Assembly (NCBI GenBank): GCA_016193315.1 | Contig: JACPSJ010000001.1 | Location: 284,446-348,445 of the forward strand | Reading direction: 5' to 3' | Length of the DNA stretch: 64,000 nt | From: Candidatus Kerfeldbacteria bacterium | Lineage (GTDB): Bacteria; Patescibacteriota; Patescibacteriia; SBBC01; CAIJZX01 | In this document: piece after piece, positions 836 through 24,502 of the stretch | Position numbering within the stretch: the stretch's first letter is position 1 | Layout: each line of letters starts with the position of its first letter | The notes under the pieces: generated by a model | Databases searched by the model: none | What the model saw: only the letters and a program-made list of their open reading frames with translations | Told to the model about the DNA's origin: nothing | Position numbers and translations under genes: made by a program

Positions 836-897
836 AGCGAGTAAAACTGTTATATTCACCTGGTCACCCTCGATAGAGATTGGTCGGAAACCAAAGG

Positions 898-1848: not shown

Positions 1849-1850
1849 CC

Positions 1851-4322: not shown

Positions 4323-4325
4323 TAG

Positions 4326-5210: not shown

Positions 5211-5252
5211 GGTAGCATTTTCTCGCCAGTTCGTTATACTAACAAGAGGTCT

Positions 5253-6746: not shown

Positions 6747-6791
6747 GGATCGTCCCGAAGCGGCCCACCGCGCTCGGTTAGATGTTCGTCA

Positions 6792-9700: not shown

Positions 9701-11153
9701 GGAACGTGGCTGGGTCAGCCTCCGCGGGCTTAACTCCACCGACCCGCCGCTCGGCATCATCATCCCCGGCGGCGGGACATGGCTGTACGGCTGCCAAGTC
9801 TGCAGCGGCGCGGCCGTCGATTCACTGACCTGCCAGTTTTGCCAAGATGGAAAGAACCGTAGTTGTGCCCCGCCGCCGACCAGCTGCACTAATTTTTGCG
9901 ACGGCGACATTACCAAAGCGCACTGCTCGCAAAACGTCCATTGCCCAGGCGGCGAAGTGTGTAAACCGGCCGGATTCTGTGCTTGGAGCGGTGAGAGGTG
10001 CACATCCGATGCTGAATGTGTAGCCAGTAGTGGCGGCCGCTGCATTTTCGGCGCCCTCTGTCCGACCACCGGTTCCAGTTGCCAGGAGTATGGCGTCAAC
10101 TTGAGCTCAGAGAACGGTCGATTCTACGGCTATGCCTGGAGTCCGGATTACGGTTGGCTCGATTTCGGACTCCTCAGTCGGGGCAGCCGCCGCTACATCC
10201 AAGCCACGCTCGGCGACATCTACTCTCAGGGCGGCATTGGATCGGAAAGTACCCTCCCGGCGCCGAGCGGCAAGAGCAACGCCACCTTTGCCATCTCCGC
10301 CGCCGGCACGATTAATAACTTTTCCACCACGTTTGCGCCGGCGGCGGTTGACTTCGACGTTTCCCGTTCACTGGCGCCGTTCATCCCCTCGCTGACCGAG
10401 CGCAACAAGTACGCTTCGGCGCTCGGCCGACTCGATCTCGATGGCATTGCCAATGAAGCGACGGGGGGCAGCGGGATCAACAAGTATGGCTCGCGCATCG
10501 TCGCTTTGACGACCGCCGGCCCGAACGATGATATCGCCAGTGACTGGAACAGCCAGCTGGACCTGGGCGGTGGCAACACTGGCCGGTTGGACGGACGCGT
10601 GTTCAGGGCCGGCACCAGCGGCCAGACGCTGACGATTGAAAACGGTGTGCGGATTAGGAATGCCACTAACGCCGCCCCCTACCGTCACGGGTCCGGCATG
10701 CTGATCGTCGAGGGCGACCTGTACGTCAAGGAAGACGTCACCTATGGCGCCAGCACGGTCCAGGATTTGCGGACGCTGGCCTCGCTGATGGTCTGGGTCA
10801 AAGGGGACTTGATGATCGATAACCACGTGACCCAGCTGGCGGGAAATTACCTGGTCGAAGGCACCATCTGTACTGGCCAGAAAGAACCCTACGGGGCCGC
10901 GGACCCGCCGGCGTGCGATCCGGTCCGCGTCGGGCCGTTCGGCGGGCCGACGTCCGACAATGTCTTCCCCCTGACCGTCCGCGGCGTCATGCTGGCCAAG
11001 AAGTTCTTCTTCGCCCGCACCTTCGCCGGGACGATCGACAATCCCTCGCCCTCGGAGTTGGTCATCAACGATGGCCGACTGCAAACAAACCCCTTGCCCG
11101 GCCTGACGGACTTCGCCAATGTGCTGCCCAGCACGGTCAACACCGGTCCGTAG
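6792..11153 (+). CDS. giant (1453 aa) membrane-anchored Cys-rich surface protein
   Basis: Single long ORF. N-terminal TM anchor (FRLLILAVGLGFLLIIGGW). Several Cys-dense stretches (CSAGRCTENNLLCGGDSDC; CQFCQDGKNRSCAPPPTSCTNFCDGD...). The ORF is uninterrupted over 4.3 kb. Confidence 0.6.
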   Translation: MNKHLILPPRIRVARATYGFRLLILAVGLGFLLIIGGWNLFRATRAEFEVPLIDTTFLARADLRDVWSYFRNTRTLGSLSPDYTGSLGTNEFVHALAVGETTDGRASVIQLRNGKWEQVMPVAVNNGTEYRIDGAFNAIAGAYEDGGGYADFFVGGYDSTTGRAIIRSASTLDSRIFAGCSASAGRLQPCDLAMAFQNNNNQLYSLPGGSTEIYAMDAVPRFLGRKYAGGVNGLFLEWVQAPNATNTCSAGRCTENNLLCGGDSDCRSNRWDTVTAGPPFLGSSEDITGVALVQGDLTYITTSTFAGTKPYDRVCGAGQRSKLYRLVGRPTTGDWTTLIDTGGTGVCFYGLAADTKYTFPGDHGPLQGVVWIAAGRSDGSGAVYRFDEGTGVTSISSTAQGVTTPVYSVTALPDRGGDGQNILTNGDFEAWSVRSPIVTDPNVRPDQWPHTDESKWGRNNPGASCGQNSMDVRIVDSTQVAGVNGYGIRQAPGIYFDDQLKCLTNLSVDRKRNASASSYNRVDLSTIEGTTFKVSGRYKVTFDPAADSPQYPQGGVMIQCQGANYPSSVDCSFSNFREVRTLSQGNSSLDSRSDANGFINFSYTFSRQNNQFLTPILGGTSGPRVLERGEVLEIRCYATYGVDVVCDDLAVEPVNSPNKTPRFNYTVIAVGENDPGNPNAFVNRDGLGSTTFVPEDDTEWPDLNAVHGFGQQQVFTVGADSTILQRTPGNVLGYVWLGSASPVDLGRAGLGWISTTCINHRTPGGTLCLRSPESFALTVENNQLIGRAWVGKNYGTAPGGADKESANLGRCRRASLPSPTASGAPYDKSGACNTASRTCVANANQACLRDFDCYGRCEKNEGFICVSDADCRASPFAAAAPFDSTGSRLAREPRVGLECAQSNASPSACAGGGWLTFSASEFTDTPPNAINPNNDCGVSGGACLDAASGQLKGWGQFMTLAQSPAPNGDPERGWVSLRGLNSTDPPLGIIIPGGGTWLYGCQVCSGAAVDSLTCQFCQDGKNRSCAPPPTSCTNFCDGDITKAHCSQNVHCPGGEVCKPAGFCAWSGERCTSDAECVASSGGRCIFGALCPTTGSSCQEYGVNLSSENGRFYGYAWSPDYGWLDFGLLSRGSRRYIQATLGDIYSQGGIGSESTLPAPSGKSNATFAISAAGTINNFSTTFAPAAVDFDVSRSLAPFIPSLTERNKYASALGRLDLDGIANEATGGSGINKYGSRIVALTTAGPNDDIASDWNSQLDLGGGNTGRLDGRVFRAGTSGQTLTIENGVRIRNATNAAPYRHGSGMLIVEGDLYVKEDVTYGASTVQDLRTLASLMVWVKGDLMIDNHVTQLAGNYLVEGTICTGQKEPYGAADPPACDPVRVGPFGGPTSDNVFPLTVRGVMLAKKFFFARTFAGTIDNPSPSELVINDGRLQTNPLPGLTDFANVLPSTVNTGP

Positions 11154-11234
11154 TCTGGCGATGACAGCCAGCATCGCGATCCAATGCTATTAGGGCTTGG
11201 TGAGCAATGAACTTCTCCACAGCCCTTTTCGCTT

Positions 11235-11263
11235 TTGACGCCAAGTCGATTTTATGCTATACT
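11235..11263 (+). promoter_or_regulatory. sigma70-type promoter of the T4P operon (TTGACG-N17-TATACT)
   Basis: Near-consensus -35 (11235-11240) and -10 (11258-11263) with a 17-nt spacer in an AT-rich gap upstream of pilM. Confidence 0.45.
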
Positions 11264-11365
11264 GAAAATACATTTAGTCGTTGTTTTTGTTGAAAAAACC
11301 CGGAACGTTGGATCCTGGTAGAACGGTCAGGGTCTGAAACCCTATCGGCTCGAGGCCGGACCGGG

Positions 11366-12382
11366 ATGTTATGGCCACCTTTAATCCCAAACATAGTTTT
11401 CTACAATGGTCGGCCTCGGCTGATGACGTACGGGTACCTAGAGCAGGCCACGGACATCGTCAAGAGCGACGCGGTCAGCAGTAAGGCGGCGGTAGTGACC
11501 GGTCTCAAGACCCTCATCCACCAGGCCCACGTTACGACCAGCAAAATGGTGGCTGCCCTGCCGAGCTTCACGGTCTTTAGCTCGATTATTAGTCTGCCGC
11601 TGATGACGCGGAAGGAGTTGAATGCCGCCGTTCGTTGGGAAGCGAAGAAGTTCGTGCCCTTGCCGATCGATGAACTGGTTCTCGACTGGAAACTAGTCAA
11701 GGACACCACCCCAAAATCGAGTGATGAACAGACGCCCAAGAACCTCCGCGTCCTGATTACGGCCGCGCCCAAGAGTTTGGTCAAACGGTATTTGGATATC
11801 GCTAAGGACAGCGGGCTGCAAATGGTCAATCTCGAAACCGAAGCCTTGGCCCTCGAACGCTCGTTGATCGGCACCGATGTCGCGCCGGTGATGATCGTCG
11901 ACATCGGCGCCGTGGCCACCGACATCGCCGTCCTGGTCGACGGCATCCCGCTCATCAACCGCAGCATCGACGTCGGCGGCAACACCATCACCAAGTCGAT
12001 CGCCCAAAGCATGAACATTGACCTGGAACGGGCCGAACAGTTCAAACGCGATTTCGGCTTGGCCACCGGCCAGCAGTCGGTGTCGCAAGTGCCGAAGACG
12101 ATCGAGTTCGTGGTCAGCTCGATCATCAACGAAATCCGCTTCGTCCTCAACCTCTACCGCACCCAGGGTCAGCCGCCGGTGGAAAAGATCGTCTTGGCCG
12201 GCGGGTCGGCCTTCCTCCTCAACTTGCCGGAGTACCTGGAGAAAACTCTGTCGATAAAAACGTTCGTCGGCGATCCCTGGGCCCGCGCCGTTTACCCACT
12301 TGAACTCCAGCCAGCGCTCCAGGAAATCGGGCCGCGCTTCGCGGTGGCCATCGGGCTAGCCATGCGTGAGATCGTGTCCTAG
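11366..12382 (+). CDS. pilM: type IV pilus assembly protein PilM (actin-like ATPase fold); N-terminally short
   Basis: AVRWEAKKFVPLPIDELVLDWKL, LITAAPKSLVKRYLDIAKDSGLQMVNLETEALALERS and DIGAVATDIAV motifs align with PilM. There is no upstream in-frame extension (TGA at 11291), so the canonical first ~25 aa (GIDIGSxxIK hairpin) are absent. Confidence 0.8.
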   Translation: MLWPPLIPNIVFYNGRPRLMTYGYLEQATDIVKSDAVSSKAAVVTGLKTLIHQAHVTTSKMVAALPSFTVFSSIISLPLMTRKELNAAVRWEAKKFVPLPIDELVLDWKLVKDTTPKSSDEQTPKNLRVLITAAPKSLVKRYLDIAKDSGLQMVNLETEALALERSLIGTDVAPVMIVDIGAVATDIAVLVDGIPLINRSIDVGGNTITKSIAQSMNIDLERAEQFKRDFGLATGQQSVSQVPKTIEFVVSSIINEIRFVLNLYRTQGQPPVEKIVLAGGSAFLLNLPEYLEKTLSIKTFVGDPWARAVYPLELQPALQEIGPRFAVAIGLAMREIVS

Positions 12383-12461
12383 AAACTTTTTACACTCTCG
12401 ATTCGAATCAAACACCGTGGTCAATCTTAAATCCCATATCCTAAATCCTTAGCCCCGTGTT

Positions 12462-12558
12462 CCCGTTAGAGATAATCACCTCCATAGTTCGGAGCATACA
12501 CTTGTGATAGTAACCGCCCCATCCTCCACCAAGGCTTACGCCCTTAATCTCTAACGGG
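12462..12558 (+). promoter_or_regulatory. long-range stem (CCCGTTAGAGAT / ATCTCTAACGGG) enclosing an AT-rich CCTCC-containing loop, abutting the pilN start
   Basis: 12-bp perfect complementary arms at 12462-12473 and 12547-12558. The 3' arm ends 1 nt before the pilN ATG (12560). The loop carries CACCTCC and CCTCCACC (anti-SD-like). Confidence 0.3.
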
Positions 12559-12559
12559 C

Positions 12560-13480
12560 ATGCCCGACGTCAACTTACTACGTGACACCGAGTCCCCGGA
12601 ACTGCCGCCCAAGAAACCTCGGCGGCCCGGGCCACCGGAGTTGACCGATCCGGTCGCTCAAGGCGGAGGTTTGAGTAAGTTTTTTCAGTCGTTCCTCAGC
12701 CGGACTGGACGGCCAGGTCGAACGCCAACCCCGGCGGTCGGCGCTCGACGGGACAACAGCATCATGGGCCTCGGCCGATCGAAAGTCGACCAGCGGATCA
12801 TTAAAGAAGAAACGCGGGCTGGCCGACCGACCGTTATCCCGCTGCCAGAAGAGGAGGGCTTGGGCGTCAACCTGCTGGCCGAAGAGCTGTTTACGACGGT
12901 CAAGCCAAGGGAACGGCTGATCCAGTTGGGGGTTTGGACAGCCGGGGCCGTCGTCCTAGTCGGGCTGGCCTACGTCGGTCTAGCCTTAGCCGAGCGATCG
13001 GTGTCCCAAAGTATCAACTCCACCCGTCAAGAACTCCGCCAAGTTGAGTCCGACGTGGCGGCGCTCCAGGATGACCAGCGACAGATCATGGCGACCACCA
13101 AGAAAGTTGCGGCCATCCGATCGCTGATCGAAAATCACACTCGCTGGACGAACTTCTTCGCCAAACTCGAAGCCTACACGCTGCCGGAAGTCTTCTACGG
13201 CACGAACTTTAGCGGCGACATCAACGGGCAGCTAACGCTCAGCGCCCGAACCGACAGTTATGAGAACCTGGCCAAACAGTATCTCGTATTCACCGCGGCG
13301 GTGAAACAAAAAGATTTCATCAGCGCCTTCGAAATCAGCAGCGCCAGCCAGCAGGTTACCCCCGAGGGTACCGCGGTCACTTTCAGCGTCTCGCTGACAG
13401 TCGTCCCGTCGGTGTTTGCCAACACCAGTGTCGCGTCGACGACTACCGACACGGCCGACGATTCCGTCCGTAACCCATGA
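12560..13480 (+). CDS. pilN: PilN-like type IV pilus assembly protein with extended cytoplasmic N-terminus
   Basis: Starts MPDVNLLRD (PilN INLLP-type N-terminus). Single TM (VWTAGAVVLVGLAYVGLAL) followed by a coiled-coil periplasmic region. Position between pilM and pilO. Confidence 0.65.
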   Translation: MPDVNLLRDTESPELPPKKPRRPGPPELTDPVAQGGGLSKFFQSFLSRTGRPGRTPTPAVGARRDNSIMGLGRSKVDQRIIKEETRAGRPTVIPLPEEEGLGVNLLAEELFTTVKPRERLIQLGVWTAGAVVLVGLAYVGLALAERSVSQSINSTRQELRQVESDVAALQDDQRQIMATTKKVAAIRSLIENHTRWTNFFAKLEAYTLPEVFYGTNFSGDINGQLTLSARTDSYENLAKQYLVFTAAVKQKDFISAFEISSASQQVTPEGTAVTFSVSLTVVPSVFANTSVASTTTDTADDSVRNP

Positions 13481-14130
13481 AAGTTCCCGCCAGCTTAACC
13501 AGTTTTCTAGTCGACCACTTCCGCTGGGCGGCCGGGACGGTGATGGCCATCATCTTTATCCTCGGCTACTTACTGTTGCTGCAAGGGCGGATCGACACCC
13601 TGCGGACGGCAGGTTTCTTGGAACGTCGGAAGGTCGAGGCCGAACTCAACGCCCAGCGGCAATTCGCGCGGGACTTGCGGACCTCCGTCGACCGATTCCG
13701 TCAGGCGCTGACTCCCGACCGCCTGGAGGTAGTCGACCACTTTATCCCCACCGGCCCCGACTTTCCGGGCTTACTCCTCACCCTCGACAATATCGCCCGC
13801 TCAGCCAATCTGCGCCTCGACTCGATGATCGTTAGCCAAGCCGGCCAAACGGGCAACCTCGGGGACGAGGCGACGGCCAGCGGGGAGGGCGCCGTCAGCG
13901 CCGCCACGATTAGCGGGGTCAACCTCCGGACCCAGGATGTGTCCGTTCTGGTTTCCGGCGGCGCGAGCTATGATCACTTTAAGCGCTTTATTTCGTTGGT
14001 CGAGTCCAGTCAGCGGTTGCTTGACGTTATCACTCTCAACTTCGTGACGCCCCAAAAAGATGAATCAGAGGCCTCCGAATCTTACGGTATCGTCGTCCGG
14101 ACATACTATTTACCAGATGAACAAGCCTGA
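13477..14130 (+). CDS. pilO: PilO-like type IV pilus assembly protein
   Basis: Single TM (AAGTVMAIIFILGYLLLL), then coiled coil and a C-terminal domain. Translationally coupled with pilN (ATGA overlap). Confidence 0.6.
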   Translation: MKVPASLTSFLVDHFRWAAGTVMAIIFILGYLLLLQGRIDTLRTAGFLERRKVEAELNAQRQFARDLRTSVDRFRQALTPDRLEVVDHFIPTGPDFPGLLLTLDNIARSANLRLDSMIVSQAGQTGNLGDEATASGEGAVSAATISGVNLRTQDVSVLVSGGASYDHFKRFISLVESSQRLLDVITLNFVTPQKDESEASESYGIVVRTYYLPDEQA

Positions 14131-14133
14131 GCC

Positions 14134-14409
14134 ATGGCGCTGGTAAAGAAACGATCAAATTCCGCCCGCTTGTTCCTGGTGCTGGTCGTGGTGGTGGCCA
14201 TTGCCGGCGTCGGTTATTTCTTAGTGCAACAATTCATCGCCCCCTCGCCAGGCGGCCCGGATGACCAAGCCAATCGGAATCGGGCAGTCATTACAAATTT
14301 TGGCGAAGGCATTCTCAACGACGATCGCTACCGCGCCCTACGGTCCTTTGAACGAACCATCTCGGTCAACGTCAACGCCGACGCCGGTAATCCTGATCCG
14401 TTCCAGTAG
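14134..14409 (+). CDS. small membrane protein (possible PilP-like component)
   Basis: 91 aa with an N-terminal TM (LFLVLVVVVAIAGVGYFLV). Ends ...AGNPDPFQ. Sits between pilO and pilB. Confidence 0.4.
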   Translation: MALVKKRSNSARLFLVLVVVVAIAGVGYFLVQQFIAPSPGGPDDQANRNRAVITNFGEGILNDDRYRALRSFERTISVNVNADAGNPDPFQ

Positions 14410-14411
14410 CC

Positions 14412-16166
14412 ATGGCCCCGCCACCAGTTGCCACCACCGCCTCGCTGGCTGATATTCTTCTCCGCGAGAACGTTCTTAGCCCTACCAAGATCGGCGAACT
14501 ACAAGCCGAAGCCCAGCGCGCCCACGAGACGCTCGACCATATCATCGAACAATCGGGGGCGGTGCGGGAGGAAGATTTACTGCGGGCCAAGTCGGCCCTG
14601 TACAACCTGCCGGCAATTGACTTGTTCGGCAAGATCGTCCGGGCGGAAATCCTGAACATCATTCCGCCGGAGCTGGCGGAAAACTATCGGATGGTCGCCT
14701 TCAATCGAGCCGGCGACGAGGTGGCGATCGCCATGGTCGACCCGACGAATTTCCAGGCCCTCGAGGCGGTGGAATACTTGGCTCGCAAACATAATTTGCG
14801 CATCAAGTACTACTTGACGGCCGAGGCCTCACTGAAATACGTTCTCCGTCAGTACGAGAGTCTGTCGGCCGAAGTAGAGGAAGCGCTGAAAGGGGCCGAG
14901 GCCGGGGCGGCCAAGCAACTCGGGGCCGTCGAAATTTCGGAAAAAGGGCTGGAAGAGGTAGTCAAAACAGCGCCGGTCTCGAAAATCGTCTCGGTCGTGC
15001 TCCGTCACGCGGTCGAGGGCAAAGCTTCCGACGTCCACATCGAACCGGTGGGCAACGAAACCCGAATTCGTTACCGCATCGACGGTATCCTCCACACCTC
15101 GTTGACCTTGCCGAAGCACGTCCACTCCGCCCTGGTCGCCCGGATTAAAGTTCTATCGAATCTGAAGATCGATGAAACCCGCGTCCCCCAAGATGGCCGT
15201 TTTCGGATGGTCATCGACGGCCGCAACATCGACTATCGGGTCTCGACGCTGCCGCTGATCAGCAACGAAAAGGTGGTGATGCGGATCCTGGACACGAGTT
15301 CCGAGCTGATTACGCTCGAGCACCTTGGTTTCGAGGGCAAGAACATGGAGGTTATGCAGGAAGCGGTCACCCGCTCGCACGGCATGTTTCTCATCACCGG
15401 GCCGACTGGGTCGGGCAAGTCAACCACCCTCTATGCGTTGCTGAACATTCTCAACGAAGAAGGAGTCAATATCATCACCCTCGAAGATCCGGTCGAATAT
15501 TACATGACCGGGGTCAATCAATCGCAGGTCAACCCAGACGTCGGTTTGACCTTTGCCGCCGGCTTGCGCTCAATTCTCCGCCAAGACCCGGACATCATCA
15601 TGGTCGGCGAGGTCCGGGACAACGAGACCGCCGCGCTGGGCGTCCACGCCGCCCTGACCGGTCACATCGTCCTGTCGACCCTCCACACGAACGACGCCAT
15701 CGGTGCCATCCCCCGTCTGATCGACATGAAGATTGAGCCGTTCCTGATCGCTTCGTCCCTGAATGTGGTCATGGCCCAGCGGCTGGTTCGTCGCGTCTGC
15801 CAACACTGCAAACGCGAGTTGCCGATGCCGAAGGAAATGGAATCGTTAGTGGTCGAGGGCCTGCACGGATTGGCGCGCGATCGCCTACCGAAGGATGTCA
15901 AGTTGACGCCGCCACTTCGCATTTGGCAGGGCCAGGGCTGCGCGCGATGCGAGAACTCGGGCTACAAAGGCCGAGTGGCCATTTCCGAGGTGCTGGAGAT
16001 TACGGAGGGGATGAAGAAGATAATCGTCGCCGGTGGCGACCTGATGGAGAACATCCACACCGAGTTCGTCACGCAGGGCATGTTTTCTATGAAGCAGGAC
16101 GGGATTATTAAGGCCCTTCGTGGGCTAACAACGGTCGAAGAGGTGCTCGACGCCACCCGGGCATGA
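14412..16166 (+). CDS. pilB: type IV pilus assembly ATPase PilB (GspE family)
   Basis: N-terminal GSPII_E_N-like domain. Canonical Walker A ITGPTGSGKSTT, Asp box ITLEDPVEY, Walker B DPDIIMVGEVRD, His box LSTLHTNDA, and the CxxC...CxxC tetracysteine. Confidence 0.9.
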   Translation: MAPPPVATTASLADILLRENVLSPTKIGELQAEAQRAHETLDHIIEQSGAVREEDLLRAKSALYNLPAIDLFGKIVRAEILNIIPPELAENYRMVAFNRAGDEVAIAMVDPTNFQALEAVEYLARKHNLRIKYYLTAEASLKYVLRQYESLSAEVEEALKGAEAGAAKQLGAVEISEKGLEEVVKTAPVSKIVSVVLRHAVEGKASDVHIEPVGNETRIRYRIDGILHTSLTLPKHVHSALVARIKVLSNLKIDETRVPQDGRFRMVIDGRNIDYRVSTLPLISNEKVVMRILDTSSELITLEHLGFEGKNMEVMQEAVTRSHGMFLITGPTGSGKSTTLYALLNILNEEGVNIITLEDPVEYYMTGVNQSQVNPDVGLTFAAGLRSILRQDPDIIMVGEVRDNETAALGVHAALTGHIVLSTLHTNDAIGAIPRLIDMKIEPFLIASSLNVVMAQRLVRRVCQHCKRELPMPKEMESLVVEGLHGLARDRLPKDVKLTPPLRIWQGQGCARCENSGYKGRVAISEVLEITEGMKKIIVAGGDLMENIHTEFVTQGMFSMKQDGIIKALRGLTTVEEVLDATRA

Positions 16167-16582
16167 CGCGTTCTATGACCACCGCCAACCACAGCCAGAC
16201 CAAGATTCTGATCGTCGAGGACGATACGTTCCTGGCCGGCATGTACGTCACCAAGCTGGGGATGGAACATTTTGCCACCGACTTGGCGAGCGACGGTAAA
16301 AGCGGACTGGAAAAAGCTAAGAAGTTTGCGCCCGACCTCATTCTGCTGGACGTGCTACTGCCAAAACTGAACGGCTTCGACGTCCTCCGATCATTGAAGC
16401 GTGAGCCGAGCACGCGCCATATCCCCGTCATCCTGCTAACCAACCTCGGTCAAAAATCCGATGTCTTGAAAGGGCTCGAACTCGGCGCCAGCGACTATCT
16501 GATCAAAGCGCACTTTATGCCGTCGGAGGTGGTCGATAAGATCAAGCAAACGCTCCGGCGTGCGCATCCCCGCTCGCGATGA
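16163..16582 (+). CDS. stand-alone response-regulator receiver (CheY-like REC) protein
   Basis: ILIVEDD...DLILLDVLLP...LTNLG...IKA carries all REC signature residues (DD, phospho-Asp, T, K). No output domain. Confidence 0.8.
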   Translation: MTRSMTTANHSQTKILIVEDDTFLAGMYVTKLGMEHFATDLASDGKSGLEKAKKFAPDLILLDVLLPKLNGFDVLRSLKREPSTRHIPVILLTNLGQKSDVLKGLELGASDYLIKAHFMPSEVVDKIKQTLRRAHPRSR

Positions 16583-16664
16583 TGATGGTCACTGCTGGCG
16601 ACCGATATCCCACCGCCTGGCCCACCGAATCAACGTTAACTGACATTCGGAGTTTCTAGCCGGA

Positions 16665-17735
16665 ATGGGCGCCACGGACACCATCATTCTCAACCGCATC
16701 CTGACTACCGCCGCTGGCCTGCGAGCCTCTGATCTTCATTTTCTCATTGGCAGCTCGCCGATACTGCGAGTCGAAGGCCGGCTGACGCCGCTCAACGACG
16801 AGCCGCCGGTCAGCGCCGATTTCATGGAATCGATTATCGCCACCTTCTTGTCCGAAACGCAGCGTCAGCACCTGACCCAGAACAAAGAAATCGTCGTCGG
16901 CCACAGCCTGAATCCCCAAGTTCGTTTCAAGGTCAGTGCCTTCTACCAGCGCGGTTCGCTGACGGTGACGCTGCACTTCATCAGTGCCGAACTGAAGCGG
17001 GTCAAGGATCTTGGCTTGCCGGAGGCGGTCGCCGGATTCGTCCGCCTGACCAAAGGCCTGGTGCTCATCACCGGGCCGTACGGTGCCGGCCGGACCACGA
17101 CCATGAATGCCATCATTAACGACATCAACGAGTCGCGGACGGTCAATCTGGTGACCATTGAGCAGCCGATCGAGCACCTGTTCGTCAACAACCAGAGCAT
17201 TATTGAGCAACGCGAGGTTGGACGAGACGCCCTCTCCTACGAGCAGGCCATCCGCACCGCCAGCCGAGAGGATGTCGACGTCATTGTGGTGTCCGAGTCC
17301 GAGGGCCAAGAGGTGCTGGCCGCCATGCTCGACGCGGCCGAGGCCAGTCGACTAGTCATTTCGACCATGAACACCGATTCCGTCCTGGGGACGATCGAAA
17401 AGATCCTGAATAGCTTCCCGGCCGATGAGGTGCCGAAAGCCCGGGTCCAGCTGTCGAACGTCCTGTCCGGCATCATCAGTCAGCGGCTGTTGCCGAAAGT
17501 GGGCGGCGGGGTGGTAGCGGTGGCTGAGGTGATGATCCCGACCGGCCCGGTGCGGGCGGTCATCCGCGATGGGGCGATGGTCCAGCTCAACAACGTCCTG
17601 CAAACGTCGCGTCAGCCGGGGATGGTGTCGCTCGATCGTAGTCTGGCGCAGCTGGTGCGCGACGGCATCATTGTGGTTGAAGACGCGCTCATCCATGCCC
17701 AAGACCCGAATCAGTTGAAAGCGATGGTCAGGTAA
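16665..17735 (+). CDS. pilT: PilT-like retraction ATPase paralog with degenerate catalytic motifs
   Basis: Aligns end-to-end with PilT, but Walker A is GPYGAGRTT (Lys->Arg). Asp box is IEQPIE (Asp->Gln). Walker B is DVIVVSESEG instead of DIILVGEMRD. His box is STMNTDS (His->Asn). Confidence 0.8.
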   Translation: MGATDTIILNRILTTAAGLRASDLHFLIGSSPILRVEGRLTPLNDEPPVSADFMESIIATFLSETQRQHLTQNKEIVVGHSLNPQVRFKVSAFYQRGSLTVTLHFISAELKRVKDLGLPEAVAGFVRLTKGLVLITGPYGAGRTTTMNAIINDINESRTVNLVTIEQPIEHLFVNNQSIIEQREVGRDALSYEQAIRTASREDVDVIVVSESEGQEVLAAMLDAAEASRLVISTMNTDSVLGTIEKILNSFPADEVPKARVQLSNVLSGIISQRLLPKVGGGVVAVAEVMIPTGPVRAVIRDGAMVQLNNVLQTSRQPGMVSLDRSLAQLVRDGIIVVEDALIHAQDPNQLKAMVR

Positions 17736-18947
17736 ATGCCCGTCTACGACTACAAAGCGAAAGACGCCGAAGGGCTGACCGTGACTGGCGCGGTCGAAGC
17801 GCCGAGCGAAGCGGTCGCGCAGGATACGCTCAAAGAACGCAGCTTGGTGGTCGTGGCCCTGCGGGAGCGGAAGCGCCTGACGCTCTTTCAGTCGTCACTC
17901 GGGTTCTTCAACCGGGTGCCGCGGAAGGACGTGGTGCTCTTCGCCCGTCAATTGGCGGTCATGATTTCGGCCACCGTGCCGATCGTTCAGGCCCTCCGCA
18001 TCCTGGTCAAGCAGACCTCGAACATCACCTTCAAGATCATCGTCTCGGAAATCGCCGACGAAGTCGACGGCGGCGCCAAGCTGTCGGCCAGCCTAGCCCG
18101 GTACCCCCAGGCCTTCTCCGACTTCTTCGTCCACATGGTTCGCTCCGGTGAGACGACCGGCAAACTCGATGAGACACTCAATTACCTGGCCGACCAGCAG
18201 GAGAAGGACTACGATCTGGAACAGAAGATCCGCGGGGCTATGATCTACCCATCCTTCATCGTCGGGGCGATGGTCATCATCGGCACGCTGATGATGATTT
18301 TCGTCATCCCCAAACTGACCGAGGCCCTGGTCGCCGGCGGCGCCCAACTGCCGATCGCTACCCGACTGCTGATCGGCACCAGCAGCTTTCTACAGAACTT
18401 CTGGTGGTTATTGATTGCCGTCGTCGGCATCACCGTTTCCCTGCTCCGGGTCTACATGCGCACCCCCGTCGGCCGTCGACAATTGGACACCCTCAAGTTC
18501 CACCTGCCAGTCTTCGGTCAGATCTTCCAGAAGATCTACCTGGTCCGTTTCTCGCGCAGTTTCTCGACCCTCATCGCCAGCGGCATCCCGGTCACCCGCG
18601 CCCTCGAGATCGTGGCCGACGTCATCGGCAACCTGCTCTACAAGGAGCTAACGATAGCCACCATCAAGGAAGTGGAAGCCGGTAACTCAATCGCCACCGT
18701 CTTCGTCCAGAGCAAAATCGTCCCGCCGATGCTGCCGCAGATGATGATCGTTGGCGAGCAGACCGGCAAGCTTGATCTTATTCTCGATAAACTTTCGGCC
18801 TTCTACGCCAAAGAACTCGAAAACCTGGTCGCCAACCTGGTCAGTATTATCGAGCCGCTGATCCTGGTGATCATGGGCGTGGCCGTGGCCGTCATTGTGA
18901 TGGCCATTCTGCTGCCGCTCTACAACCTGTCCGGGGCAATTCAGTAA
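17736..18947 (+). CDS. pilC: type IV pilus platform protein PilC (GspF family)
   Basis: Two T2SS-F repeats, three TM segments, typical PilC length (403 aa). Immediately follows the ATPases. Confidence 0.85.
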   Translation: MPVYDYKAKDAEGLTVTGAVEAPSEAVAQDTLKERSLVVVALRERKRLTLFQSSLGFFNRVPRKDVVLFARQLAVMISATVPIVQALRILVKQTSNITFKIIVSEIADEVDGGAKLSASLARYPQAFSDFFVHMVRSGETTGKLDETLNYLADQQEKDYDLEQKIRGAMIYPSFIVGAMVIIGTLMMIFVIPKLTEALVAGGAQLPIATRLLIGTSSFLQNFWWLLIAVVGITVSLLRVYMRTPVGRRQLDTLKFHLPVFGQIFQKIYLVRFSRSFSTLIASGIPVTRALEIVADVIGNLLYKELTIATIKEVEAGNSIATVFVQSKIVPPMLPQMMIVGEQTGKLDLILDKLSAFYAKELENLVANLVSIIEPLILVIMGVAVAVIVMAILLPLYNLSGAIQ

Positions 18948-19094: not shown

Positions 19095-19682
19095 GTGAGA
19101 AGAATGCAAACGAAGAAAGGCTTCACACTCATCGAACTGCTGGTGGTCATTGCCATCATCGGTATTTTGTCGGCCATCGGCCTGGTGACGCTATCCGGAG
19201 CCCGGGAGAAAGCACGAGATGCGGCCCGGAAGAGCGACATCGGTCAAATACGCACCGCCCTGGTCCTCTACTTTGATGACCACGACAGCGAATACCCCGG
19301 GGTGGCCACGATCAACGAGTCGGACTCCATCATTGATAACGGGGACGCCGCCTGCAACAGCGGCATTGATGTTTGTGACAACATTGTCACCGAGTATCTG
19401 GACCGGATGCCGGCCCCGCCCAATGCCACGGGCACAGGCGCCTGCGCGCTCGGCGATTCCTACTGGTACACGGCTAATGATGTCGCCGCCAACGATGCGT
19501 CTGATTGGGCGCTCTGGACTCGACTTGAGGCGAACGCTTGTGAGGAACTCTACATTATCAACGAGAGTGGTTTCGGCGATGAATTCGATGATACTGGAGA
19601 TGAAACTGCCGCGACCGAAATCAATTGCGACGATGAAATCGGCGGAGTTAATGCCTGCGATTCCCCGCCAACCAACAACTAG
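19095..19682 (+). CDS. pilA: type IV (major) pilin with class III signal peptide and acidic C-terminal region
   Basis: MRRMQTKKGFTLIELLVVIAIIGIL is a canonical prepilin leader (G|FTLIE). Cys pair near the C-terminus (INCDDEIGGVNACD). Own promoter and strong RBS. Confidence 0.85.
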   Translation: MRRMQTKKGFTLIELLVVIAIIGILSAIGLVTLSGAREKARDAARKSDIGQIRTALVLYFDDHDSEYPGVATINESDSIIDNGDAACNSGIDVCDNIVTEYLDRMPAPPNATGTGACALGDSYWYTANDVAANDASDWALWTRLEANACEELYIINESGFGDEFDDTGDETAATEINCDDEIGGVNACDSPPTNN

Positions 19683-19768: not shown

Positions 19769-20386
19769 ATGGTTCAGAGCATTGCCGCGAACGCCCCGGG
19801 CTGGTTATACCTGCTGGCGGGGGTACTTCTTGGGTCCATCAGCCTGTGGTCGTCGCTGGTTATCATCCGGCGGCCAGCGCGCGGGTCGACCGTCGCCCGA
19901 CGGGCGGCTTGGTGGCTAGTCACCGTCCAGCTGGCGTTTCTCTTTCTATCGCACGGTCTACTCTGGCGAGACTTCCGGCGGAGTGACTTCACCCGCTGGC
20001 TGGTACCGCCGCATAACTGGTTTCTGGTTGACCAGTTCAACCAAGACCTAACCTCGCTGTTGGCCGGCTGGCTGGCCGCCGGTGTCCTTTTCCTCCTGCT
20101 GGCCCTGCTGTTCGTCAAGGTCTGGCCGGGGAAGTTTCTCGACCCCACCGATCTCATGTTACTGAGCCTCGGCGCCGGAGTCGTCGGTTGGCCGTCGGTA
20201 TTGTTGTTTCTCGGTCTCACTTTCGCCACCACCGTCATCGGACTCGTGTTCTTGGTTATCATCCGCCGGCGATCAGCGCGCGACCGCCTGGTGATTACCC
20301 CGTTTATTCCGGTGGCGGTGATTCTGACGTTGGTTTTCCAAACGCCATTGCTAGCCTGGACGCACCTCGGGGCGATCAGGTTCTAA
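19769..20386 (+). CDS. polytopic membrane protein, possibly A24 prepilin-peptidase-like (no zinc-finger domain)
   Basis: 5-6 TM helices. FLDPTDLMLLSLGAGVVGWP and the terminal ITPFIPVAVILTLVF resemble the GGDVKLL / PFGPFLA regions of A24 peptidases. Start chosen at ATG 19769 (AGGA 8 nt upstream). Confidence 0.35.
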   Translation: MVQSIAANAPGWLYLLAGVLLGSISLWSSLVIIRRPARGSTVARRAAWWLVTVQLAFLFLSHGLLWRDFRRSDFTRWLVPPHNWFLVDQFNQDLTSLLAGWLAAGVLFLLLALLFVKVWPGKFLDPTDLMLLSLGAGVVGWPSVLLFLGLTFATTVIGLVFLVIIRRRSARDRLVITPFIPVAVILTLVFQTPLLAWTHLGAIRF

Positions 20387-20418
20387 CCGCGGGTCGATCA
20401 ATCTGCTATACTTCTCTC

Positions 20419-20826
20419 ATGATCAGAAAAGGCTTTTCCTTCGCCGAAACACTGATCGTCGGCTCGCTCTTCGCCCTGGCTGTCCTGCTTGGGACGCTGC
20501 TCCTGTCGGGTGAACGGGCCCGGACCAGGGACGCCAAGCGGATCGCCGACATGACCCGGGTGGCCGGCGCCATGGCCGTCCTCTACGCCCAACAGGCCAG
20601 TTACGCCTCGGCTGCTCAAGGCTGCGCCAAGATCGGTGATGCGGCCAGCGCTTGCACGTTTGCCGCCGCCCCTGGCTGGGGGGAACTGCAAGATCCGGGT
20701 CGGTTTTCCTACACCGTGGTGCGCGTCCCGGATGGGGACGATTTCGGGGTTCGCTTTCGACTGGAAAGAAACTACGGCCCACTCCGTGCTGGGCCGCACG
20801 TCGTCACCAAGACCGGAATCCACTAA
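20419..20826 (+). CDS. second type IV pilin-like protein
   Basis: MIRKGFSFAETLIVGSLFALAVLLG is a prepilin leader (G|FSFAE, Glu at +5). TGCTATACT at 20404-20412 lies 6 nt upstream of the ATG (leaderless). Confidence 0.7.
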   Translation: MIRKGFSFAETLIVGSLFALAVLLGTLLLSGERARTRDAKRIADMTRVAGAMAVLYAQQASYASAAQGCAKIGDAASACTFAAAPGWGELQDPGRFSYTVVRVPDGDDFGVRFRLERNYGPLRAGPHVVTKTGIH

Positions 20827-21593
20827 TGACCGACCACCCGGTACTGTTGGTGCTCGTGTTTGTACTCGGCGCCGCGGTCGGCAGCTGGCTCAACGTGGTC
20901 ATTCTCCGGACGCACAACCAAACTCCCCATTGGCTGGGACGATCGCGCTGTCCGCATTGTCACCGCACCCTGGAGTGGTGGGAACTCATCCCGGTCGTCA
21001 GCTTCATCGCCCTGGGTGGTCGCTGCCGCACCTGTCACCGCGACCTCGACCCACAGTACCTGATCGTCGAACTGCTGACCGGCGTCGCCTTTCTAATTGT
21101 CTGGCGAGCCATGGGCTGGACGGCCGTACTGCTGACCGCCTGGTTGGTGGCGGCGGCGATGATCAGCATCGCCGTCTACGACGCGCGTTGGTCGGTCATT
21201 CCCGACAGCTTCACGCTCAGCCTAGCGCTGGCCGCCATCCTGTTCGTCACCCTCAGCCGACAGCCGTGGCTGGACAGTCTGCTGGGCGGTTTGGTCGGCG
21301 CCACGTTCTTCGCCTTGCAGTACTTCCTTTCCCGGCGGCGCTGGGTCGGCAGCGGCGACATCCTGCTCGGCCTGGCGCTCGGCTTGCTGCTCGGCTGGCG
21401 GATGCTCGGCCTGGCGCTGATGGGGGCGTATTTCCTCGGCGCGCTCAGCGCCTCCACGCTGATCATTCTGCGGCGCGCCAACCATGGCAGCGCCATGGCC
21501 TTCGGCCCATATCTGATGCTGGGGGGTTTCTTGACGTGGTTGTGGGGGCCGCAGGTAGTTGAATGGTATTTTCGCCATGCCATTTTTTTCTAA
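20826..21593 (+). CDS. pilD: prepilin peptidase PilD (A24A family)
   Basis: Start overlaps the pilin stop (TAATG). CPHCHRTLEWWELIPVVSF...GRCRTCHRDL tetracysteine domain. Catalytic-Asp motifs (VYDARWSVIPD; GSGDILLGLALGLLLG). Confidence 0.85.
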   Translation: MTDHPVLLVLVFVLGAAVGSWLNVVILRTHNQTPHWLGRSRCPHCHRTLEWWELIPVVSFIALGGRCRTCHRDLDPQYLIVELLTGVAFLIVWRAMGWTAVLLTAWLVAAAMISIAVYDARWSVIPDSFTLSLALAAILFVTLSRQPWLDSLLGGLVGATFFALQYFLSRRRWVGSGDILLGLALGLLLGWRMLGLALMGAYFLGALSASTLIILRRANHGSAMAFGPYLMLGGFLTWLWGPQVVEWYFRHAIFF

Positions 21594-22176
21594 ACCGGCC
21601 GGGCTAACGCTGGTCGAACTCTTGATCAGCATCGCGGTCATTGGCATCCTTAGTTCGATCGTCTTTGTCGGATTCTATCAAGACCGCGAACGCTCAGCTG
21701 TCAAGCGCGCCGCCGAGCAACTGCAAGTCGACGTTCAATCCGCCCAGAACCGGGCTCAGTCTGGAGTTTTGACCGGCGGCAGCCTGCCAGCTGGCTACGG
21801 TGTCCACTTTGACGTGGCCACGCCCGACCGTTACCTCATCTTTGCCGATGCCTTGAGCGGCAGCCCGCCAGCTGGCGACAATGAATACCGCCCTCCACCC
21901 GGGGGCACGGACACCATCGTGACGACGGTCATCCTACCGTCCAGAGTCGTGGTGCATCGCATTGGTGTGATCAGCCTCACCTTTGACCGCGGATCAGCGG
22001 TTTTCAGCGTGCCGAACGCCCAAAGCACCTTGCGGGTCTGGGACGCCGGCGGAGCGGCCTCAACGCCGTCGTCGTTGCCGATCACCCTCCGCCAGACGAG
22101 GGCCAACCTGTGCTATAGTGTTACTATCGTGCCTAGCGGAACGGTCAGTCAGCGACAATTGGATTCATGCTCATAA
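21577..22176 (+). CDS. minor pilin / pseudopilin
   Basis: MPFFSKPAGLTLVELLISIAVIGIL gives G|LTLVE prepilin cleavage. ATG 21577 chosen over the upstream TTG in the track. Confidence 0.7.
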   Translation: MPFFSKPAGLTLVELLISIAVIGILSSIVFVGFYQDRERSAVKRAAEQLQVDVQSAQNRAQSGVLTGGSLPAGYGVHFDVATPDRYLIFADALSGSPPAGDNEYRPPPGGTDTIVTTVILPSRVVVHRIGVISLTFDRGSAVFSVPNAQSTLRVWDAGGAASTPSSLPITLRQTRANLCYSVTIVPSGTVSQRQLDSCS

Positions 22177-22811
22177 AGCGCCGCGCCCAGACCCTGTTGG
22201 AAACCGTCATTGCCGCTGGCGTCATTGTCGTCTCGGTCATCGGTTCGACCACGTTAATCATCAGCACCATGACCGTCGGCCGCCTCAGCCAAAGCCGGGT
22301 CGAGGCCGGGAACTTTGCCCGCGAAGGACTGGAGATTATCCGCGGTATCCGCGACAGCAATTGGCTGCAGCGGGAGCAGAATATCGCCGACGGCGCCAGC
22401 GGTACAGTTCAGTGGGACGACTCTGGTCAGTCGACCGGTTACGTATCGTTGGGCGGGTCCGGCACCCCCAAATGTTGGCGGCCGGATTTTGACCCGACGG
22501 TTGGGTGGTCCATAGTTACCGTCGCTTGCCCAGCCGGCGGAATGATACCCACCGACTGTCTCGCTGATGCCCCGCGAGTGTACCGGTATGATGACGGTTC
22601 GGGCAACCGCCATTATACCGATACGGATTGTGGGGCGGACTGCGCCCCGACGATTTTTCGGCGTAACGTGGCCGTGGCGCTGCAAACGGAAGCGGTCACT
22701 GGTATTCCCAACCCGGTCCCGTACCTCCAAGTCGTATCCACCATCTGCTGGGACGATCGAGTCAGCCACAAGCCGGTGATTGTTGAAGAACGCCTGTATG
22801 ACTGGCGGTAA
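22167..22811 (+). CDS. minor pilin-like protein (atypical leader, Ala at -1)
   Basis: MLIKRRAQTLLETVIAAGVIVV has a Q-TLLE motif with Glu at +5 and a hydrophobic helix, but Ala replaces the usual Gly. Confidence 0.55.
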   Translation: MLIKRRAQTLLETVIAAGVIVVSVIGSTTLIISTMTVGRLSQSRVEAGNFAREGLEIIRGIRDSNWLQREQNIADGASGTVQWDDSGQSTGYVSLGGSGTPKCWRPDFDPTVGWSIVTVACPAGGMIPTDCLADAPRVYRYDDGSGNRHYTDTDCGADCAPTIFRRNVAVALQTEAVTGIPNPVPYLQVVSTICWDDRVSHKPVIVEERLYDWR

Positions 22812-23577
22812 GAAATACAGCCGGCTGGCTTACCGACCATCTTTTACTTTGGTCGAAATATTAGTGGTCGCCTCGGTGTTCTCGCTTCTATTCTTAGTCG
22901 CCTCAACCATTTTCGTCAGCGTCCAATCCTCGCAACGGGCCTCGCTCATCCAGCAGCGGGTAGTGGCCGATGGCCGATTCATGCTGGAAACGATCGCCCG
23001 GAGCGTGCGCCTCAGCTCGATTGACTACGAGTACTACCGCGATCCGGACGGCAATGGGAATTTTAGCGATGAGATTCCCCTCAGCAGTCGAGTCGGGAGC
23101 GCGGCCGTCCCGCTCGTGCTCCGTGATCAAAACGGCGGGCAAACGTGTTACCGTCTGAATACCAATGTCCTCGAGGTCGGCACTGACTGCGCCGGCTGGC
23201 AAGGTTTTACGCCGGCCGATCTTCAGGTCACCGACTTTGACGCTTTCGTTCGCCCGCAGTCAAGCCCGTTTCTGCCCGTCCCTACCAGCGAGCCGGAATG
23301 CTACAATTATGATGCCGGGGCGGGAGACAGCAATTTTGATCCCGACCTCGGGGTCTGTGTTTGTTCCGATGCGGACGGGGACTTCCTCGATAGCACCAAC
23401 TGTTTTCCCAATCAACGTTGCGTGACGGCCACACCCGGCAACTGGATTTGTCAAAATGCCACTGTCCAGCCGCAGGTGACGCTGGTCATGCGGACCGTCT
23501 CCAGTCGGGCTGGGCCAGGTGAGTCGGCCGAGACCACGTTGCAGACGACTGTTAACTCGCGTGTCTATGGCGGCTAG
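22798..23577 (+). CDS. minor pilin-like protein (Ser at -1)
   Basis: MTGGKKYSRLAYRPSFTLVEILVVASVFSLLFL is a prepilin-like FTLVE motif. Cys-rich C-terminal half. Confidence 0.6.
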   Translation: MTGGKKYSRLAYRPSFTLVEILVVASVFSLLFLVASTIFVSVQSSQRASLIQQRVVADGRFMLETIARSVRLSSIDYEYYRDPDGNGNFSDEIPLSSRVGSAAVPLVLRDQNGGQTCYRLNTNVLEVGTDCAGWQGFTPADLQVTDFDAFVRPQSSPFLPVPTSEPECYNYDAGAGDSNFDPDLGVCVCSDADGDFLDSTNCFPNQRCVTATPGNWICQNATVQPQVTLVMRTVSSRAGPGESAETTLQTTVNSRVYGG

Positions 23578-24498
23578 GGAACACCGCTGGGTCTTTCGCT
23601 CCCGCCGGCGGCCAGGAGTCGTGCTGTTACTGGCGATGCTGCTGATGGCCTCGGTCACCGCCTCGACGATCGCCGTGGCCGTGGTCATCAATTCCACCCT
23701 CGGTCAATCAAAGAATCTCGACGATTTCTTCACTGCCTCCGCCGCCGCGGACGCGGGGATAGAGCGTAGTTTGGCCGTGGTCAAGGAGGGTCGGAAATCT
23801 GGAGTTAGGTTCAACGATGGTAACCCCAATAACGATAATGATGTGATGGACAAAGTTGGCCGACCGCCGCCATCAGCACCGAGAACTGTCACCTTGTCGT
23901 CTAGCAACGCTAGCACGGCCATCACCTCAGACAACTTCCCCGCCCCCCTAACCATGAGGGAGATGGCAGTTAACCAGACCATTAGTTTTGACATCCTCAG
24001 CACCCTGGTGCCGTACTTGGTCATCAAAATTGAATGCCCCGAGGACACGTACCCCTGCGCCGGCCAGCTGGAGGTCAGTTGGAACGTTATCGACTCGAGC
24101 GGCAATAGCGCTTTTGCCTCTCGGGATGTCATCTCCTCGGCCATCTTCGATCACACCCCCCGAAGTTACGACTTACGAGCCGCCTTGTCAGAGACCGGGT
24201 CGGGGGCAGTCTACTCCGGAGGCATTTTGGGTTTTCGCGTCCACCTCCGAGCCCTGGAAGACGAATTGGCAAACCTCAGCGTGGTTCCCTGCGCGGCCAA
24301 TACTCCAACCTGGGAAGTACCATGTACCTCGCTACCGGAGTTTACGAAGTTCTTCGGGCGGCTGACGATTTCCAGCCGCGGAACTGTCGGATCCGCTGCC
24401 AATCAAGTTCAATCACTGAAGACAGCCGCCGTCCTCTGGCAGCTTCCCACACCCAGTCTCTTCAACTACGTCCTCTTCTCCGAGGAAAGCATCATCCC

Positions 24499-24502
<4 letters not shown>
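23567..24502 (+). CDS. PilX-like / pilus-associated protein with N-terminal TM helix
   Basis: MAAREHRWVFRSRRRPGVVLLLAMLLMASVTAST has a hydrophobic N-terminal helix without the conserved Glu. Last gene of the pilin block. Confidence 0.45.

Follow-up and report, generated by a model that had tools for sequence, protein, structure and literature searches.

Does the PilT homolog encoded between pilB and pilC in a Candidatus Kerfeldbacteria type IV pilus locus still power pilus retraction, when so many of the residues that handle ATP in canonical PilTs are replaced? The question was raised by pilT' (16665..17735, + strand), an open reading frame (ORF) of 356 aa in a stretch of 64,000 nucleotides from this ultrasmall bacterium of the Patescibacteria (CPR) (contig JACPSJ010000001.1, positions 284,446 to 348,445), which was analyzed as a whole and is hereafter called the window. 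A first-pass annotation made from the letters of the window had described the gene as a divergent PilT-like paralog with every catalytic motif degenerate. The answer that we favor, and to which we give about an even chance, is that its product, PilT', would be a hydrolysis-impaired pseudo-ATPase or a very slow ATPase, converted from a motor and kept for a nucleotide-dependent, non-motor role on the platform protein PilC.

PilT' is a true PilT homolog with the two-domain fold of PilT. The protein matched Pfam T2SSE (2.2e-25), and a phmmer search against the PDB sequences returned Aquifex PilT (2ewv; E=2.8e-77) as the top match, colinear over residues 11-356; PilTs of Geobacter, Thermus, and Pseudomonas and PilU came next. 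Identity to the solved PilTs (Aquifex 2ewv/2gsz, GmPilT4 6ojx, and P. aeruginosa 3jvu) was 34-37%, with full-length colinearity and the same fold. An AlphaFold2 model built on 54 homologs reached a predicted local distance difference test score (pLDDT) of 90.5 and a predicted template modeling score (pTM) of 0.86, and its top Foldseek match was the ATP-bound GmPilT4 (6ojx; TM-score 0.87, root-mean-square deviation 2.8 Å). The best NCBIfam match by far was pilT_fam (1.3e-93). With TIGR01420, the NCBIfam model of the PilT/PilU family, PilT' scored 314.0 bits, below the curated cutoff of 319.1, whereas a member of its sister subtype (P0084) scored 340.6 and canonical PilTs 437-469 bits. Because of this score under the cutoff, the GenBank name of the exact protein, "Flp pilus assembly complex ATPase component TadA" (Candidatus Kerfeldbacteria metagenome-assembled genome, 857,372-bp contig), is to be read as a fallback. 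A TadA/CpaF identity was rejected, since pilT_fam matched far better and the sole TadA-family model that matched (TIGR03819; 4.9e-05, 22.7 bits) remained far under its cutoff of 373. Automated names were inconsistent within the clade of PilT' and included "TadA," "PilT/PilU family," and "hypothetical." The identical protein was carried by six independent assemblies or contigs. A GGAG motif lies approximately 13 nt 5' of the pilT' ATG, and the pilT' TAA is directly followed by the ATG of pilC at 17736 (junction TAA|ATG).

Substitutions in PilT' were read from a residue-by-residue alignment with PDB entries and then checked by coordinates, with 90 sampled PilT domains as the canonical reference (Walker A Lys in 90/90 by selection). 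The Walker A motif (17073..17099, +) reads GPYGAGRTT instead of GPTGSGKST, with the glycines kept and the Lys replaced by Arg (R143). In the Asp box (17154..17177, +; TIEQPIEH vs. TIEDPIEY) the Asp is replaced by Gln, and E166 and E170 are kept, the latter being the Glu that coordinates Mg in the PilT family (McCallum 2017; PMC5424180). The Walker B strand and pore loop 1 (17277..17306, +; DVIVVSESEG vs. DVIFVGEMRD) retain the Asp and the catalytic Glu (E211, equivalent to PaPilT E204), with Gly exchanged for Ser and Met-Arg-Asp for Ser-Glu-Gly. The His box region (17337..17381, +; AEASRLVISTMNTDS vs. canonical AETGHLVFGTLHTNT) carries the changes Thr to Ala, Gly to Ser, His to Arg, and His to Asn; both histidines are gone, with R229 and N236 at the equivalents of PaPilT H222 and H229, and the inter-subunit Thr (PaPilT T220, GmPilT T221) is Ala. 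In PaPilT, twitching is abolished by E204A and by H229A (PMC6858323). Two further changes were found in the N-terminal domain, where K89 (16929..16931, +) replaces the first conserved Arg, that of an R-x-N motif (here K-V-S91), and H104 (16974..16976, +) the second. Their assignment to the arginine pair was made based on motif and alignment, and both positions were Arg in 88/88 canonical domains. These arginines contact the gamma-phosphate in the ATP-bound state (PMC6153414) and have been described as "two arginine fingers" (PMC5424180).

The four motif changes that the first-pass annotation had called, namely Walker A Lys to Arg, Asp-box Asp to Gln, the divergent Walker B and the His-box His to Asn, were thus borne out by alignment with characterized PilT/PilU proteins, in which the substituted positions align with the catalytic motifs. 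The second His-box histidine, both N-terminal-domain arginines, and the inter-subunit Thr add to its list. Every replaced position was at least 97% canonical among the 90 reference domains, and approximately 10 simultaneous departures at such positions cannot be attributed to chance. Overall, the replacements fall on the residues that serve to sense or attack the gamma-phosphate, namely the Lys of Walker A, the two arginines of the N-terminal domain, the histidine pair of the His box, the inter-subunit Thr, and, in GEMRD, the Arg and Asp. The description of every catalytic motif as degenerate was nevertheless too sweeping, since the replacement is extensive but E211, E170, and the P-loop glycines are intact. 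In PilT', the backbone of the P-loop and the Glu that binds Mg are retained, as are most residues of the hexamer interface and the arginines of the AIRNLIRE motif. Interface residues as defined for PaPilT by McCallum 2019 (PMC6858323) were kept or conservatively replaced (D31/E219/R239/R294/R123 to E37/E226/K246/R301/K130), and the equivalent of the interface residue D242 is Asn. The AIRNLIRE-like motif PVRAVIRD (17547..17570, +) differs at 4/8 residues and keeps the hydrophobic pattern and both arginines, R297 and R301, which were nearly invariant in the PilT' family; R301 is the equivalent of PaPilT R294, on which the open interface and the interaction with PilC depend (PMC6858323).

The same kind of motifs was present in 120/120 of the nearest homologs (50-100% identity), so that the substitutions recur in relatives, a check that had been suggested along with the initial claim. 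Two subtypes could be distinguished, one with GPYGSG[RK]TT, IE[QS]PIE, and VVSEAxx, the other with GPFGSGRTA, IEKPIE, and VVSEMEE; RLV[IL][ST]TMNTDS was common to both. With each GTDB species represented by a single genome, a scan showed relatives of PilT' encoded in at least 320 species genomes, and the best 80 loci belonged to Kerfeldbacteria, Buchananbacteria, unnamed Patescibacteria, and one Microgenomatus. The order PilM-N-O-PilB-REC-PilT'-PilC-pilin(s)-PilD-...-LigA was kept in 64 of these 80 loci, down to 40% identity, and the REC gene was present in every locus of the PilB-PilT'-PilC type. A second PilT-like gene was found neither in the 64-kb window nor within 10 kb of pilT' in the 64 related loci. 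Many third-party-annotated records of metagenome-assembled genomes titled "uncultured Gammaproteobacteria bacterium" (L007, L013, L017, L021, L023, and others) hold typical Patescibacteria pilus loci, and these titles look like generic mislabels.

The nearest canonical representatives were the PilTs of Saccharibacteria. A Saccharibacteria locus (L087) has the order PilM-N-O-(94 aa)-PilB-PilT-PilC-...-PilD with a canonical PilT; fully canonical PilTs were also encoded in a PilB-PilT-PilC-pilin-PilD locus (L089) and in a PilT-PilC-pilin-PilD-minor pilins-LigA-GatC-GatA locus (L093), whose downstream flank is that of the window and whose gene order recurred in dozens of metagenome loci. A metagenome scan with the canonical PilT P0162 gave 80 loci, and those of the Patescibacteria type had canonical PilT in the slot of pilT'. 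Because canonical PilT has exactly this slot in related Patescibacteria, pilT' is by position its ortholog and not, as first annotated, a divergent paralog; neither is it a lineage-specific extra copy or a case of private decay. Canonical Patescibacteria PilTs (P0340/L087 and the clade of P0162/L093) share with it the length and the locus architecture up to the LigA-GatC-GatA flank, and in some cases the REC gene. Unlike PilT', these proteins have every canonical motif and are very conserved, with 77-82% identity within Saccharibacteria; PilT' was only 37-39% identical to them, although PilB reached approximately 42%. In a simple neighbor-joining tree without support values, 79/79 degenerate sequences formed one clade with no canonical member inside. 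The finding is therefore more general than the first-pass annotation, in being clade-wide and orthologous, and less extreme in the glutamates that are kept.

The first-pass annotation had also pointed to the stand-alone REC regulator before pilT'. It is indeed directly upstream but is not special to the degenerate form: the REC gene was considered as a marker of the degenerate lineages, since L087 and L089 are without it, and was rejected as such because approximately 14 loci (among L129-L150) have PilB-REC-PilT with canonical motifs. Two unusual architectures were seen among relatives. Canonical Patescibacteria-type PilTs of 500-850 aa (P0154 and P0160; L089 10001-12193) carry low-complexity, probably disordered N-terminal extensions of 200-500 aa in a normal PilB-PilT-PilC slot, and these extensions were rejected as degenerate PilT domains for being low-complexity and disordered. 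Tandem PilT-PilT fusions of approximately 680-1020 aa occur in public data (P0121-P0128, P0131, P0148, and P0193); P0131 and P0193 combine a degenerate N-terminal with a canonical C-terminal half, and in P0148 both halves are degenerate.

The other 16 of the 80 loci had the order Der-Pth-PilT''-PilM-Mfd-DprA-TopA, in which the gene lies beside pilM only, away from pilB and pilC (e.g., L052, CP181398.1, chromosome of Kerfeldbacteria MKparc4, 9392-16770). In PilT'' the Walker A Lys and the arginine pair are still present, but both His-box histidines are gone. It was considered as a co-resident active paralog of PilT', which was rejected because no long contig carries both types, PilT'' nests inside the degenerate clade in the neighbor-joining tree, and its His box is lost. 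PilT'' probably represents the ortholog PilT' in genomes that have been rearranged.

Purifying selection acts on pilT'. The ratio of nonsynonymous to synonymous substitution rates (dN/dS) of pilT' vs. six relatives was 0.07-0.23, values that are rough because synonymous sites were saturated. The ORF was intact throughout the clade apart from a run of N in one record (L073, 7051-8140); a frameshifted pilT' was considered there and rejected, as the apparent split into two ORFs comes from this N-run. Mean identity to the window over approximately 59 loci was 58% for PilM, 62% for PilB, 62% for REC, 50% for PilT', and 65% for PilC, and PilT' was less conserved than PilB in 55 of approximately 56 locus comparisons and than PilC in 53 of approximately 54. 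Two canonical Patescibacteria lineages showed the reverse order, with identities of 57% for PilT, 40% for PilB, and 31% for PilC.

Conservation within the family was a mosaic, as counted in the 120 nearest homologs and, for the whole clade, in the 79 tree members. The Mg-binding Glu (equivalent of PaPilT E163) was Glu in 120/120 and 79/79. Conservation reached at least 90% among degenerate and canonical sequences alike for G137, P138, G140, G142, E166, P168, and E170, of which the P-loop residues (G137, P138, G140, G142) and the Mg-binding Glu were invariant, and for the QRE..D loop. The equivalent of PaPilT H229 was never His and was Asn in 81/120; that of H222 was Arg in 115/120 and His in 5/120; that of the Asp-box D160 was Gln, Lys, or Ser, with Asp in 1/120 compared to 87/90 canonical domains. 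The Walker A residue was Arg in 85/120 and Lys in 35/120, in a patchy distribution. At the first N-terminal-domain arginine position Lys was found in 119/120 close homologs and Arg in more distant members, and the second was His in 67/120 and Arg in 53/120, and His, Arg, Lys, Phe, or Asn clade-wide. A compensatory swap, in which the Walker A Lys to Arg change would be paired with the Arg to Lys change of the arginine, was rejected, as no covariation was seen across the clade. The equivalents of PaPilT R206 and D207, at least 97% conserved in canonical PilT, were almost random in the family. The column of the catalytic Glu was non-acidic in 17/79 clade members from several separate subclades, with the gene intact and the synteny unchanged, and two of the sequences (L056 and L068) had no acidic residue near this column. 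As a single clade under purifying selection, with a faster rate and mosaic further loss, the family has an evolutionary pattern that fits a non-catalytic or weakly catalytic role, in line with the structural or regulatory role first proposed for PilT'. A clear homolog with replaced catalytic residues, purifying selection, and relaxed lineage-specific loss, PilT' would be classed as a pseudoenzyme.

PilT' and canonical PilT have in common the location of their genes between pilB and pilC, the glycines of the P-loop, the Asp-box Glu pair, the catalytic Glu, the QRE loop, and the AIRNLIRE arginines; PilT' differs in the Walker A Arg, the replaced N-terminal-domain arginines, His-box histidines, inter-subunit Thr, and Asp-box Asp, the replaced Walker B Gly-x-x-Arg-Asp, the TIGR01420 score under the cutoff, and a rate that is faster than that of PilB and PilC instead of slower. 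ATPase-dead PilTs have a precedent in V. cholerae, where Walker A and Walker B mutants of VcPilT (K136A and E204A) and the natural R206S variant of MO10 are motor-defective, still engage the machine, and let PilU retract the pilus (PMC6762196). The R206 position is changed in PilT' too, and a likeness in ring function may exist by analogy; unlike these single substitutions in the presence of PilU, PilT' has approximately 10 changes that are fixed in the whole clade, and a PilU or PilT partner was not found in the window or within 10 kb at the 64 loci. PilU itself belongs to the same PilT/PilU family and has a similar fold (9n32, TM-score about 0.76). Unlike PilT', it needs intact Walker A and B and is encoded beside canonical pilT; a PilU identity was rejected, given the absence of the Walker A Lys and of a co-encoded PilT. 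Nucleotide pockets without turnover are known from other RecA-like proteins with structural or regulatory motor roles, such as FlaH/ArlH of the archaellum and the alpha subunits of F1-ATPase. These belong to families different from that of PilT' and act alongside a catalytic partner subunit, so that any likeness would be one of analogy. Genome papers on Patescibacteria take PilT for an ordinary ATPase of retraction or twitching (PMC6744442, PMC5220378), and a Saccharibacteria PilT has been reported with conserved Walker boxes. In the literature searched, whose coverage was incomplete, no report of a catalytically inactive PilT turned up, either for Patescibacteria or for other organisms; the eroded clade is widespread and went unremarked there.

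How such a protein could serve the pilus machine can be outlined. In RecA-type ATPases, exchange of the Walker A Lys for Arg usually preserves nucleotide binding and cripples hydrolysis (RecA K72R, Rad51 K to R). PilT' would still bind Mg-nucleotide (Mg-ATP or ADP), form a ring, and dock on PilC, its translationally coupled partner, with ATP turnover very slow or nil. Its conformation would be set by nucleotide binding rather than by turnover, and it could be a switch, plug, or clutch without a motor role, in competition with PilB for the platform. As an outcome, slow unpowered retraction would be permitted, or the pilus would be held extended for attachment. That this conversion took place in a large Patescibacteria clade including Kerfeldbacteria, Buchananbacteria, and relatives seems to us an evenly balanced proposition. 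The pili of the clade probably work without a normal powered retraction motor. More tentatively, the only PilT homolog of this large branch may be a non-hydrolyzing, nucleotide-sensing ring: in the type IV pili of these episymbionts, PilB would drive extension, no retraction would be powered, and the ring would serve as a clutch on PilC, possibly controlled by REC, that chooses between holding and passive retraction.

Several points weigh against a loss of catalysis and were considered together with its alternatives. The loss of ATP hydrolysis, like ring formation and docking on PilC, is predicted from sequence only. The catalytic Glu is present in PilT' of the window and in 114/120 of the nearest homologs, and the Mg-binding Glu always; most members without Glu in the catalytic column have an acidic residue three positions downstream, so that a relocation is possible. 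The His-box histidine was described as "highly," not completely, conserved in the superfamily (McCallum 2017; PMC5424180), and the tree that unites the degenerate sequences is of a simple kind, as mentioned. The replacements, moreover, are themselves conserved rather than random (K89 in 119/120, R229 in 115/120, N236 in 81/120), a pattern that a rewired but functional site would show as well. PilT' could then be a retraction ATPase that still works, probably with slower turnover, with Arg in the P-loop, Lys and His in place of the arginines, and Asn in place of the gamma-phosphate His. The invariant P-loop backbone, the retention of the gene in the slot of the motor and coupled to pilC, and the lack of another PilT-like gene near any of the 64 loci would all agree with this. 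We regard it as rather unlikely, however, because at least 97% of the 90 canonical domains agree at each of the positions of the Walker A Lys, the arginine pair, and H229, and H229A and changes of R206 are loss-of-function in model PilTs. Within the PilT' clade Lys and Arg interchange in Walker A, where the change to Arg classically cripples hydrolysis; such an interchange inside a single clade is not known from P-loop motors that work. The non-acidic catalytic column in 17/79 members, with nothing acidic nearby in L056 and L068 and the gene kept all the same, and a rate above that of PilB and PilC, opposite to canonical PilT, point in the same direction.

If PilT' is dead, it could also be an adaptor that recruits a competent ATPase to PilC, either PilB or a canonical PilT/PilU from another part of the genome. 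The V. cholerae case, in which a dead PilT supports retraction driven by PilU, makes this conceivable, as do the retained residues for the hexamer interface and the interaction with PilC and the fusions of a degenerate to a canonical half (P0131, P0193). We consider it improbable, given that the window and the 64 loci offered no second PilT-like gene, that long contigs with PilT' showed no overlap in length with contigs of the Saccharibacteria-type canonical PilT or of the PilT''-PilM type, and that the genomes are only 0.6-1.3 Mb in size. A remodeled pocket that binds another ligand, such as a different nucleotide or a second messenger, would make PilT' a sensor that gates the pilus machine; the strong conservation of the pocket replacements (Y/F139, R143, K89, R229, N236) and the REC regulator encoded next door could be understood in this way. 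The P-loop and the Mg-binding Glu resemble an ordinary Mg-NTP site, however, and REC also accompanies canonical PilT in related loci, which leaves this explanation with a very small probability. A decaying gene, or an artifact of assembly or annotation, is suggested only by the marginal TIGR01420 score (314.0, just under 319.1) and the "TadA" name, and is practically refuted by the conservation data: the identical protein on six independent contigs, intact full-length orthologs in at least 320 species, a dN/dS well below 1, and a confident structure model, with the N-run in L073 accounting for the only split copy.

The locus around pilT' lies on the + strand throughout and starts with pilM (11366..12382; Pfam PilM_2, 1.2e-40), followed by a pilN-like and a pilO-like gene (12560-13480 and 13477-14130) that had no Pfam match and whose slot is kept in more than 60 related loci; a weak PilO match was obtained in this slot of the Saccharibacteria locus L087. 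Between the pilO-like gene and pilB, a 91-aa membrane protein with an N-terminal transmembrane helix is encoded (14134..14409). Its slot holds a 59%-identical ortholog in L090 and an ORF of 94 aa in L087, and the protein looks like a small conserved constituent, as yet without a name, of pilus loci in Patescibacteria. The extension ATPase gene pilB (14412..16166; Pfam T2SSE 1.1e-129 and MshEN) is canonical, and its translation has all four motifs intact (GPTGSGKST, LEDPVE, GEVRD, GH..LHT), as had been noted at the outset. The start of the stand-alone REC gene (16163..16582; Pfam Response_reg 1.3e-22) overlaps the pilB stop by 4 nt. Its phospho-acceptor set is complete (E19 D20 D21, D63, T93, Lys) and conserved across 65 orthologs, and a family-specific motif, DYLIKAHF.P.EV, has Lys-Ala where Lys-Pro is usual. 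A non-exhaustive scan of window ORFs showed no histidine kinase. Downstream of pilT' are pilC (17736..18947; Pfam T2SSF twice), a candidate major pilin gene (19095..19682; Pfam N_methyl 5.7e-09), the prepilin peptidase gene pilD (20652..21593; Pfam A24_N_bact and Peptidase_A24), and four minor-pilin-like genes (21559..24502; N_methyl match on 21559-22176), a series that was also called in L001 and L090.

Just upstream of pilM, five consecutive large ORFs (880-11153, +; 322, 828, 294, 497, and 1453 aa) were without Pfam match. The last of these (6792-11153), with 46 Cys, has a 38%-identical ortholog of 1412 aa at the same position in L090 and may encode a pilus-associated surface protein. AT skew was markedly negative at 20001-22000 (−0.22), an interval that spans pilD and membrane-protein genes, and at 44001-46000 (−0.24) compared to the rest of the window.

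In Patescibacteria, a central part in host attachment, movement, and DNA uptake is ascribed to type IV pili, and the presence of "PilT" is listed as evidence for retraction or twitching in genome papers on these organisms (PMC6744442, PMC5220378). Should PilT indeed be unable to drive retraction in Kerfeldbacteria, Buchananbacteria, and related lineages, such inferences of motility and DNA uptake would need to be revisited, and the routine annotation as "twitching motility protein PilT" would be overturned across much of the radiation. The clade would then constitute a natural experiment on the roles that a PilT ring can have beyond burning ATP.

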